In this document: in pieces, positions 53,528-55,997 of the stretch
Layout: every line of letters begins with the position of its first letter
Numbering within the stretch: the first letter of the stretch is position 1
Source of the DNA: Escherichia coli
Lineage (GTDB): Bacteria; Pseudomonadota; Gammaproteobacteria; Enterobacterales; Enterobacteriaceae
NCBI RefSeq assembly: GCF_016903815.1
Contig: NZ_CP069973.1
Direction: 5' to 3' (one strand)
DNA length: 64,000 nucleotides
Notes under the pieces: model-generated
The model's input: the letters and a program-made list of their open reading frames with translations, nothing else
What the model was told of the DNA's origin: nothing
The model's database searches: none
Made by a program: the position numbers and the translations under genes

Positions 53528-54031
53528 ATGACTGAATTAACCAAAAAGCAATTAATCGAAGAAGCTAAATTAAAAATAGCGATTGAGAAATGCCACCCCA
53601 ATTCAGGGATGGCACGGGTAGAGGGCGAATTATTCAAAATTGCTCTGGCATCGCTGGAAGCAGAGCCAGTTGGTGATTTTTATGAATACAAACCGGATGA
53701 CTGGTATCAGCGTTCGGCTGGAGATAAAGCGCCAAAATGGACGCCACCCTATGCCGTTTTTCCAGCGCCCGTAGTGCCGGAAGAAATGGATTTGCTTACA
53801 TGCCATCTCGATGGTGTAACTGAAACATATGCTGAGGGATGGAACGCTTGCCGCGCTGCCCTGCTTCAGGGCAAAGGGGAGCCCGGGAAACAAGTTCGCG
53901 AATTGACAATGCTGGTTAAACAATTGGTTAGTCAACTGAAGAAACCGAAACCGGGCTGCAAATTGCCGGATAAAGTGATGGACTACCTGGAGCGAAGCGG
54001 ACTTATAAGCGTGGAGGATGTTTTACGATGA
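53528..54031 (+). CDS. Hypothetical prophage protein (167 aa)
   Basis: ORF with AGGAGG SD upstream; no family recognised. Confidence 0.55.
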   Translation: MTELTKKQLIEEAKLKIAIEKCHPNSGMARVEGELFKIALASLEAEPVGDFYEYKPDDWYQRSAGDKAPKWTPPYAVFPAPVVPEEMDLLTCHLDGVTETYAEGWNACRAALLQGKGEPGKQVRELTMLVKQLVSQLKKPKPGCKLPDKVMDYLERSGLISVEDVLR

Positions 54032-54111
54032 CCTGGCCTGAAGCATTCACAACGGTAGGAATTGCGATGGCGGTGGCGCTGGTGGTGTATTCGATTTGCC
54101 GCTGGGGTTGA
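54028..54111 (+). CDS. Small hydrophobic peptide (27 aa) coupled to the upstream gene
   Basis: ATGA start/stop overlap; MTWPEAFTTVGIAMAVALVVYSICRWG; one predicted TM helix. Confidence 0.4.
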   Translation: MTWPEAFTTVGIAMAVALVVYSICRWG

Positions 54112-54124
54112 TAATACTAAATAA

Positions 54125-54143
54125 CCAGCCCTTATGGGGCTGG
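54125..54143. terminator. Bidirectional hairpin terminator
   Basis: CCAGCCC-TTAT-GGGGCTGG between convergent genes. Confidence 0.6.
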
Positions 54144-54151
54144 CTAATCAT

Positions 54152-54925
54152 TTAGAACTGTTCATTGCCATCGAGGTTAGGTAGCATAATTTTTTCAATC
54201 AAGGCGAGAGCCTTTTTGTCCCGGTCAGCGAAGTATTTCGGGGCATATTGCGGCAACCAAATATTGTTAAAATGTTCTTTGAAATCTGCTAAATATTCAT
54301 TTGGGTACAGCCTTGCAGGGTATACGCGACCATCGGGATATTCATGGTCATAGGTAGGGAATGTTTTGGGTTCTACGTTTCTATTATCTCTTAACCATTG
54401 TGAAAATACTCTTCCTTGTGAAATGTCAGGAACCATTTTTTCTGGGAGTGTGTACCCTGCTTGTTCAAGAGGTGCAACCAAGTTGAATGTCAGTTCATTA
54501 AGAATAGAAAAGTGCGTGTGAGGAATTCTACTACGATTAACCATGTACCGTTTTAAATGTACAGGCATTTCTGCTGTAGTTCTTTCCCCTGACATCCATT
54601 CACGAACCCATCTTGAAACCTGGACTGCAAATTTGGGCGATAGCCACTGCGCTAGATTAATAGCGATGTCAGGATGCACCCATGTCCCTTGGTTTTCAGG
54701 TCTTCCACCTTTAAATGATTGAATTAACTCCGATATGGGAATTCCCATATCGCGTGATAATTCGTCAAAAAACTCTTGAGTAGTTTTGAGTCTAGTGTAA
54801 TCAGAGAGCAGTTTGCCCGCAGTTCTACACATTGATGTGGCGTTTATGTAACCATCTTTGGCACGTAAATGTATTATTTCGCCGTCAATTTCACGAGAAA
54901 TCAAAGATAATTGAAAGGATGTCAT
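54152..54925 (-). CDS. KilA-N domain protein (antirepressor-like) with uncharacterised C-terminal domain
   Basis: 257 aa; N-terminal KilA-N/APSES-like region. Confidence 0.7.
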   Translation of the reverse strand: MTSFQLSLISREIDGEIIHLRAKDGYINATSMCRTAGKLLSDYTRLKTTQEFFDELSRDMGIPISELIQSFKGGRPENQGTWVHPDIAINLAQWLSPKFAVQVSRWVREWMSGERTTAEMPVHLKRYMVNRSRIPHTHFSILNELTFNLVAPLEQAGYTLPEKMVPDISQGRVFSQWLRDNRNVEPKTFPTYDHEYPDGRVYPARLYPNEYLADFKEHFNNIWLPQYAPKYFADRDKKALALIEKIMLPNLDGNEQF

Positions 54926-55447
54926 TGAAAATTCCTCAAGTTGGAGAGTTCTGGAACATTAAGGCGAGGTGGCAGTAATGCACCATCTGTAATCTTTTGA
55001 TACTGACGTAATCGGGCCTGATGTGCAACGCCTTGCAAGTATGTAACTCATTGAAAACGATCATTTTTATCTATTGACATCAAATGGCAAACTGTCATTG
55101 TGCGGCTATGGCAAGTGGCAAATGCTTATAAATCATATGGATATAAATAGTACAGAAAGAGTTGTTTTCTCTAGGATATGAGTATACGCCCAATGCTGAT
55201 TGGTTGAATTTTGTTCTTGTTTTAAAGGGTAAGAGTTTAAAGTGTTGGCAGTGATGTATTGGATAGTTAGAATTGCTGTGGGTGCTTGAGGCTATCTGCC
55301 TCGGGCATGAACACCAAAGGTAGATAGAGAAAAGCCCCAGTTAACATTACGCGTCCTGCAAGACGTTTAACATTAATCTGAGGCCATATCTATGCGACAC
55401 ATAGAGATTAGCCTCTTACGGACCGAAAGGTCAAGGAGAAGCAGGCT

Positions 55448-55573
55448 ATGAAGCAGCAAAAGGCGATGTTAATCGCCCTGATCGTCATCTGTTTAACCGT
55501 CATAGTGACGGCACTGGTAACGAGGAAAGACCTCTGCGAGGTACGAATCCGAACTGGCAGACGGAGGCTCTGA
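55448..55573 (+). CDS. Hok/Gef-family type I toxin homolog (HokD-like) with divergent C-terminus
   Basis: MKQQKAMLIALIVICLTVIVTALVTRKDLCEVRIRTG matches HokD N-terminus; frame then ends early (41 aa vs about 51); short upstream ORF ends on the hok ATG. Confidence 0.65.
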   Translation: MKQQKAMLIALIVICLTVIVTALVTRKDLCEVRIRTGRRRL

Positions 55574-55655
55574 TTCGTAGACTACTAATCTGAGTAAAAG
55601 ACCCAGCGGGGAAAGAACCACGCCGGGACTAGTTAATAAGATATTTATAGCGTGG

Positions 55656-55997
55656 CTATTCTTTTTTTGCGGTATAGACTTTTTCGCCTGAGAAGTCTGG
55701 AGCTACCCAAAAGTTAATATTAAACTGAGCATCATCGCTTAGTTCAACACGGTGCCAGTATTGTGGTGGGCTTGTTGCAAAAGCGCCAGCATTAATGACT
55801 ACTTTTATCTCCGGTTCAGTAGCATTCTCATCAGCAAAACCATAATATGTTACAGTACCTTCCATCACGCATAACTGTCCAAAAACACCTGCTGCTGTAT
55901 TATGATGTGTTAATAACGCTGAAGGTACGTTCTCTTTTGTGAAGAACGGAGTTGAGCGTTTGATTACCCAGTCTTTAGGAATTCTCTTGTGTGTCAT
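55656..55997 (-). CDS. YeaR-like DUF1971 protein
   Basis: 113 aa from MTHKRIPKDW; GGGAGGTGG SD; resembles E. coli YeaR pattern. Confidence 0.55.
   Translation of the reverse strand: MTHKRIPKDWVIKRSTPFFTKENVPSALLTHHNTAAGVFGQLCVMEGTVTYYGFADENATEPEIKVVINAGAFATSPPQYWHRVELSDDAQFNINFWVAPDFSGEKVYTAKKE

Follow-up and report, generated by a model that had tools for sequence, protein, structure and literature searches.

The closest described relatives of the gene reported here are the BstA proteins, of which BstA-BTP1 from Salmonella phage BTP1, BstA-Ec from E. coli NCTC10963 and BstA-Kp from K. pneumoniae 52.145 confer abortive infection (Owen et al. 2021, PMC8585504). These three validated proteins share just ~40-48% identity with one another, yet all block phage DNA replication; sequence divergence of ~60% is thus tolerated among them without loss of function, and BstA colocalizes with replicating phage DNA (PMC8585504). 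BstA is built of two domains, and some homologues match its C-terminal region only; 21% of the homologues lie outside prophages, and a position downstream of the repressor is frequent but not obligatory (Owen et al. 2021, PMC8585504). The prophage that carries bstA is itself spared via aba, a 63-bp DNA element spanning the bstA start codon, which in BTP1 extends from -29 to +34 and contains a terminal direct repeat; cognate aba at high copy number suppresses BstA defence (PMC8585504). Our literature search found no BstA mechanism or structure beyond that study, and no test of a member of the branch with a canonical KilA-N domain.

RexAB of lambda and SieB, the latter encoded in the same prophage as the gene described here, are likewise prophage abortive-infection or exclusion functions expressed in the lysogen. 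RexAB is a two-component system of sensor and membrane channel. The likeness of both to our gene is positional and ecological only: homologues of the gene occupy the same hotspot between cI and N as RexAB (discussion of Owen et al., PMC8585504), whereas proteins and mechanism are unrelated.

Here, we describe a gene in a 64,000-nucleotide stretch of an E. coli genome (the window, meaning the whole stretch that was analysed), whose product combines a KilA-N domain with the C-terminal domain of BstA (BstA_C) and is labeled in RefSeq as 'KilA-N domain-containing protein' and nothing more. We conclude that it is probably a phage-defence gene and not an antirepressor.

A conserved gene antisense to the early operon of a Rac-like prophage

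The prophage in the window is Rac-like and lambdoid, with recE, kilR, sieB, a repressor/Cro pair, ydaT, lysis genes and trkG, and also carries O-like and DnaC-like replication genes, DUF1627, DUF977, DUF1367, YbcO and a Q-like gene. The potassium transporter gene trkG adjoins the lysis genes, as in K-12 Rac, in the corresponding locus of E. coli 7/2 (L002, 1617-3074). The KilA-N/BstA_C gene and its signals are as follows.

54152 to 54925, minus strand: KilA-N/BstA_C coding sequence, 257 aa, ATG start (WP_000200358.1)
54933 to 54937, minus strand: Shine-Dalgarno sequence GAGGA, 7 nt before the ATG, from reading of the sequence
54122 to 54146, minus strand: Rho-independent terminator, a 10-bp stem with 6 GC pairs followed by UUUAGUAUUA, from a terminator scan
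55063 to 55090, minus strand: weak promoter candidate, TTGCCA, 16 nt, AAAAAT, 9 of 12 matches in a consensus scan

The preliminary description of this DNA, made from the sequence alone, had placed an ORF on the opposite strand within the nin region, and its coordinates and setting proved exact. The gene occupies the interval from the replication genes to the Q region and runs antisense to both; on the plus strand, one side has the replication genes, DUF1627 and DUF977 plus an ORF at 53528-54031, and the other has DUF1367, YbcO and the Q-like gene. The prophage repressor is ~4.4 kb away in the same orientation as the gene; despite the prophage setting, the gene does not adjoin the repressor downstream.

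We confirmed the ORF as a real, conserved gene. Of 5426 complete E. coli genomes, 115 hold a copy that is 100% identical, and ~2.5% have the gene or a related allele. Three deposited phage genomes of ~38 kb (ON470614, ON470616 and ON470590) also hold an identical copy, which in ON470614 is embedded in the same gene order as in the window. At E <= 0.001, 2652 proteins were recovered in a protein search, and the best 120 of them all matched over the full length at >=55% identity; proteins annotated from Vibrio, Rhizobium, Neisseria and Paraburkholderia reach ~56-60% identity to the window protein. The N-terminus is colinear with those of the homologues (MTSFQLSLISREIDGEIIHL vs MTQFQLALIAREVDGEVIHL). 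A further ORF of 38 codons on the minus strand (window 54922-55038), annotated in ON470614, starts with TTG and has no ATG, and is a probable over-annotation.

Codons 56-77 of the gene (window 54695-54760) stand out at the nucleotide level, with 75-91% of codons kept relative to homologues that are 78-86% identical in protein, compared to ~10-65% in most other stretches of the gene and the same homologues. Such high codon identity could reflect local recombination or constraint at the nucleotide level.

At its 3' end, the gene is followed by a terminator hairpin that begins 5 nt past the stop codon and has a U-rich tail behind it; the folded RNA (54122-54146) has a predicted energy of -19.1 kcal/mol (z -4.5), a stability that 0 of 200 shuffles reached. 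Since the gene is antisense to its neighbours, we infer that it needs a promoter of its own. The weak candidate in the consensus scan is located ~140 nt upstream of the ATG, in a region where the same scan found promoter-like sites in no excess over shuffled sequence.

The stretch between the gene and hok also contains the hexamer TGGCAA three times in 37 bp (55085-55121, plus strand), which reads TTGCCA on the strand of the gene and overlaps the weak promoter candidate. Paired TGGCAA sites are commoner in the window than in shuffled sequence (5 vs 0.65).

A small shared accessory block that includes hok/sok

The preliminary description had regarded the ORF as an accessory gene next to a hok-like locus, and this was borne out: a genuine, intact type I toxin-antitoxin locus of the hok/sok type is situated ~520 bp from the gene, and both fall within a block that is shared with other prophages.

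55448 to 55573, plus strand: hok ORF (Pfam HOK_GEF, E 3e-16)
55280 to 55450: sok (RF01794, Rfam 101.5 bits); the hok/sok locus as a whole covers 55280-55573 on the plus strand
54028 to 55611, no strand assigned: shared accessory block of ~1.6 kb, comprising terminator, gene, 5' intergenic region and hok/sok

The block emerged when the window region was compared by blastn with IMG/VR loci. Two of these (L018 and L080) match it throughout at 96% identity, and the remainder aligns in patches only, at 84-89%. A third locus (L016) shares a shorter segment, window 54028-55418, at 99%, and a fourth (L028) a shifted one, ~53900-55594, at 94%. Lambdoid prophages with poorly conserved or unrelated flanks thus contain most or all of the block, which in these alignments behaves like a moron-type accessory unit.

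The left edge of the block is marked by an unannotated ORF of 27 codons (54028-54111, plus strand) that would encode a hydrophobic peptide (MTWPEAFTTVGIAMAVALVVYSICRWG). The ATG of this small ORF and the stop codon of the ORF at 53528-54031 overlap (ATGA), and the small ORF ends just before the terminator hairpin. Near the right edge, the nin-equivalent region holds another accessory gene in antisense orientation (55656-56021, minus strand), which encodes a DUF1971 protein (Pfam E 3.5e-26) that matched no defence family. A PADLOC search of seven neighbouring proteins found no further defence genes.

A canonical KilA-N domain joined to BstA_C

The protein consists of two domains, which map to the window as listed.

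54590 to 54886, minus strand: KilA-N/APSES-type DNA-binding domain, aa 14-112 (Pfam PF04383)
54164 to 54571, minus strand: BstA_C domain, aa ~119-254 (PADLOC, BLASTP, hhalign and PF26567)

The KilA-N/APSES signature that the preliminary description had seen in the N-terminal 100 aa is a canonical KilA-N domain: PF04383 covers residues 14-112 (E 4.3e-27; 94.5 bits, cut-off 23.8), and Mbp1 was recovered both by sequence and by structure. A family profile searched against PDB sequences found the APSES domain of yeast Mbp1 (E 0.0017), and Foldseek of the AlphaFold2 (AF2) model returned Mbp1 (probability 1.00), PCG2 with DNA (0.99) and chains of the Bqt4 complex (0.99-1.00). In addition, PHROG 129, 'transcriptional regulator', matches the N-terminal domain at E 9e-25.

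The C-terminal part, which had been thought to match nothing recognizable, is in its ~140 aa a BstA_C domain. PHROG 6287, 'BstA abortive infection system, replication inhibitor', covers aa 1-254 at E 2.7e-89, and it is also the only match for BstA-BTP1, the bstA-Ec-equivalent protein and the O103 homologue. Within the C-terminal half, aa 119-238 are matched by PADLOC's BstA model (E 3.2e-21), and the precomputed Pfam annotation of the 100%-identical protein P0001 and of all listed homologues comprises PF26567 (BstA_C) together with PF04383. Our own Pfam search used a model set that lacked PF26567, and KilA-N was its sole match for that reason; an NCBIfam search of the window protein gave no match. 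Of the domain search and structure prediction that the preliminary description had suggested for the C-terminal half, the former identified the domain, and the latter gave a fold for BstA_C that matched no solved structure.

The AF2 model of the full-length protein has a mean pLDDT of 90.8 and a pTM of 0.58, i.e., two domains predicted to be well folded in a loose mutual orientation, and the BstA_C domain modeled alone reaches a pLDDT of 89.3 and a pTM of 0.81. The predicted fold of BstA_C is alpha/beta, with four helices (122-133, 141-155, 170-182, 209-254) and one beta-hairpin (191-208). We presume that BstA_C is the effector half, joined to the KilA-N domain by a short linker.

A sister branch of the validated BstA proteins

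For comparison with BstA we used the locus of BstA-BTP1 (L001), a bstA-Ec-equivalent locus from E. coli 2012C-4431 (L004), which holds an exact match to the cloning primer NW_761 of Owen et al., and two E. coli homologues from Table S1 of that study, a table that has no E. coli entry of 774 bp. Overall identity of the window protein to BstA-BTP1, the Ec-equivalent protein and the two E. coli homologues is 20-26%. BLASTP against BstA-BTP1, whose C-terminal domain comprises residues ~156-307, aligned aa 125-251 of the window protein at 32% identity (E 3e-16). PADLOC scored the window protein at 74 bits over positions 148-272 of the 292 in its BstA model (43% of the length), compared to 350-412 bits over the full length for BstA-BTP1, the Ec-equivalent protein and the O103 homologue.

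Profile comparison was carried out with hhalign between an alignment of 30 sequences of the window family and one of 25 canonical BstA sequences. At full length the two families align colinearly from residue 1 (probability 98, E 2e-13), with the signal carried by the C-terminal domain: C-domains alone gave a probability of 98.6 (E 7e-16), whereas N-domains alone gave a non-significant 0.1. Twelve residues of the C-terminal domain are invariant in both branches (F139, E144, G157, D167, S169, G171, W177, H194, Y207, P208, F215 and Y231). The validated BstA proteins, in turn, were not matched by Pfam KilA-N at E <= 1 and found no APSES domain in the PDB. On these comparisons, the window protein falls in a branch that is sister to the tested BstA proteins; only the C-terminal domain is demonstrably shared, and a canonical KilA-N domain takes the place of the divergent 'KilA-N-like' domain of BstA.

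The window protein therefore resembles BstA in its two-domain layout, with a DNA-binding-type N-terminal domain followed by a homologous BstA_C and a shared match to PHROG 6287, in being encoded by a single prophage-borne gene with its own ribosome binding site and terminator, and in having close homologues in the same slot between cI and N, some of them behind the cI allele that precedes bstA-Ec. It differs in its N-terminal domain, a canonical Pfam KilA-N domain (94 bits) that is not matched in the validated proteins; in its length of 257 aa compared to 298-307 aa (~50 aa shorter); in the location of its gene, which lies with hok/sok in the nin-equivalent region instead of downstream of the repressor; and in that no aba-like element was recognizable at the window gene. 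As judged from sequence, the window gene is an architectural branch distinct from the tested BstA, in a non-canonical location.

Homologues occupy the slot behind the repressor

Close homologues of the window gene do have the position typical of bstA. Among IMG/VR loci with homologues at 78-88% identity, 44 of ~53 carry the gene directly downstream of, and co-oriented with, one of diverse CI repressors, and so do 2 of the 13 loci at 53-61% identity; the homologues of 84-88% identity in phage PhiR5_2 and in metagenomic phage contigs encoding P0008 are also located downstream of cI on the same strand. These cI-linked homologues begin ~31-33 bp past the cI stop codon, and at least five different cI alleles precede genes of the KilA-N type. 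The repressor upstream of the gene in 13 loci is 98-99.6% identical in amino acids to that preceding bstA-Ec in E. coli 2012C-4431, and when this locus (L004, 3836-5541) is aligned with ~3256-4760 of L033-L038 and L072-L081, divergence starts right after the cI stop codon. Because the cI allele is the same and the sequences part at its stop codon, canonical bstA and the gene of the KilA-N type look like alternative cassettes for a single site. This alternative occupancy of one slot is the strongest indirect argument that the two genes do the same job.

Homologues are not confined to this position. A KilA-N/BstA_C homologue is also found as a moron in a P2-like prophage, and the gene for P0042, a 60%-identical homologue in Vibrio parahaemolyticus (JAQZUB010000027.1; L008, 496-1523), is a single-gene cassette of a chromosomal integron, in which it and the small ORFs next to it are bordered by attC-like repeats of ~126 nt.

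When 1.84 billion cluster representatives were searched exhaustively, BstA_C was recovered in 415 clusters (50% identity), most of whose proteins are ~250-280 aa long with the domain in the C-terminal half, and the N-terminal partners sampled included KilA-N, Bro-N, Rha and ORF6N. BstA_C thus behaves as a portable module on interchangeable phage DNA-binding domains. In one protein of 1230 aa (P0145), PriCT_2, DUF3987, KilA-N and BstA_C are combined, with the domain at 982-1219; this fusion of KilA-N/BstA_C to a primase-helicase fits an activity at replicating DNA. BstA_C is also embedded in two very long proteins that have no further Pfam matches (P0193, 1770 aa, and P0217, 1656 aa).

Self-immunity

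The aba element has no general sequence signature, so that a search for repeats or conservation has little power, and ours returned no candidate at the window gene. Among nine loci analysed for direct repeats flanking the ATG with shuffle controls, the best repeat of the window was 4 bp, a length reached in 500 of 500 shuffles; in the bstA-Ec-equivalent locus, a repeat of 6 bp, spaced by 57 bp just as in BTP1, was itself non-significant (171 of 500 shuffles). Synonymous conservation over codons 1-11 relative to two diverged homologues was nothing unusual. Across 20 loci, the region upstream of the window gene is unrelated to those of the cI-linked homologues, and the 31-33 bp conserved upstream of the latter are the spacer between cI and the ATG, hence uninformative.

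Self-immunity could be provided by an aba-like DNA site or, as speculation, by silencing of the gene through convergent transcription of the early operon upon induction; as the gene opposes the early-right operon, it would be met by antiterminated lytic transcription.

Proposed function and alternative explanations

By analogy with BstA, we propose that the gene is a single-gene anti-phage defence of the prophage, belonging to the BstA family in the broad sense and acting through replication block and abortive infection, a reading that we hold to be reasonably probable. The protein would be made in the lysogen from the gene's own promoter, in the leftward orientation that the prophage repressor also has. 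Once a superinfecting phage begins lytic DNA replication, the protein would be drawn to the replicating DNA via its DNA-binding domain, where BstA_C may then block replication of the phage DNA. The infected cell would die without releasing progeny, and the lysogen population and its prophage would be protected. A defence role is supported by the way in which the gene stands alone, with its own ribosome binding site and terminator, in a small mobile block, and, in Vibrio parahaemolyticus, as an integron cassette.

It is also conceivable, though rather unlikely, that the protein shares BstA_C with BstA but has an activity unlike that of BstA, with another trigger or target, or that it is non-functional cargo left over after departure from the cI operon. 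The N-terminal domains of the two branches are not demonstrably homologous, the genomic position differs, and we found no aba signature. Against this, the gene is intact and 100% identical in 115 E. coli genomes, ~56-60% identity is retained in Vibrio, Rhizobium, Neisseria and Paraburkholderia, which argues for selection on function, and BstA function is known to survive ~60% divergence (PMC8585504).

Proteins that combine a canonical KilA-N domain with BstA_C may also form a functionally separate defence branch, an interpretation that we put forward tentatively and consider rather unlikely. Here, BstA_C would be a portable effector, and the N-terminal domain (KilA-N, Bro-N, Rha or ORF6N) would set what is sensed; the gene would have left the cI operon and become part of an autonomous block of ~1.6 kb with hok/sok; and self-immunity might operate by means other than a BTP1-style aba. 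Within this interpretation, self-immunity might stem from convergent antiterminated early transcription or from a KilA-N site in the 5' intergenic region.

The preliminary description had implied a third possibility, that of a phage antirepressor or a protein like P1 KilA. An antirepressor or transcriptional regulator would bind DNA or the repressor through KilA-N, and its C-terminal domain would modulate induction or expression. KilA-N, Bro-N, Rha and ORF6N, all of which are found fused to BstA_C, are reportedly N-terminal modules typical of phage antirepressors and regulators (Iyer et al. 2002, as cited in PMC8585504), and the match of the N-terminal domain to the 'transcriptional regulator' family PHROG 129 (E 9e-25) points the same way. 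With P1 KilA, antirepressor-like proteins and Mbp1 the window protein does share a bona fide KilA-N/APSES domain (Pfam E 4e-27; Mbp1 and PCG2 structures), but its C-terminal partner is BstA_C and not KilA-C, ANT or ankyrin repeats, and no ANT, KilA-C or other antirepressor C-terminal domain was found in it at Pfam E <= 1. Moreover, the close homologues (84-88% identity) lie downstream of the repressor on the same strand, ~31-33 bp past the cI stop codon, where an antirepressor would destabilize lysogeny; because such a position would be self-defeating for an antirepressor and is expected for a defence gene, it speaks against the antirepressor reading. Experimental data on BstA_C proteins comprise defence phenotypes only (PMC8585504). 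The searches did not assign the protein to a well-characterized antirepressor family; the family that was found is another one, characterized by phenotype. We therefore regard an antirepressor function as very unlikely.

A function in the lytic cycle or in host takeover, as a killer like P1 KilA or as an accessory to replication of the phage itself, could be read into the KilA-N name, which derives from the lethal KilA protein of P1, into the place of the gene among the delayed-early genes of the nin-equivalent region beside the hok toxin, and into the KilA-N/BstA_C fusion to a primase-helicase in P0145, but is equally hard to credit, as antisense orientation to the early operon, together with a terminator of its own, puts the gene outside the lytic transcript, and its homologues in the cI operon and in integron cassettes outside phages fit a role in uninfected or lysogenic cells. 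Nothing indicates an antirepressor or host-killing role.

Conclusions

The family, the domain model and a phage-orthologue annotation were known already, and nothing here will surprise a specialist; what is new is the membership of a widely carried E. coli gene. With the assignment of this gene to the BstA type, Rac-like prophages gain a probable defence gene, and attention is drawn to a large family branch in which the C-terminal domain is coupled to at least four kinds of phage DNA-binding N-terminal domains. The natural swaps of N-terminal domains on a constant C-terminal domain, together with alternative genes behind the same cI allele, would provide useful material for two questions in BstA biology, namely what BstA senses and by what means aba spares the phage that carries it.
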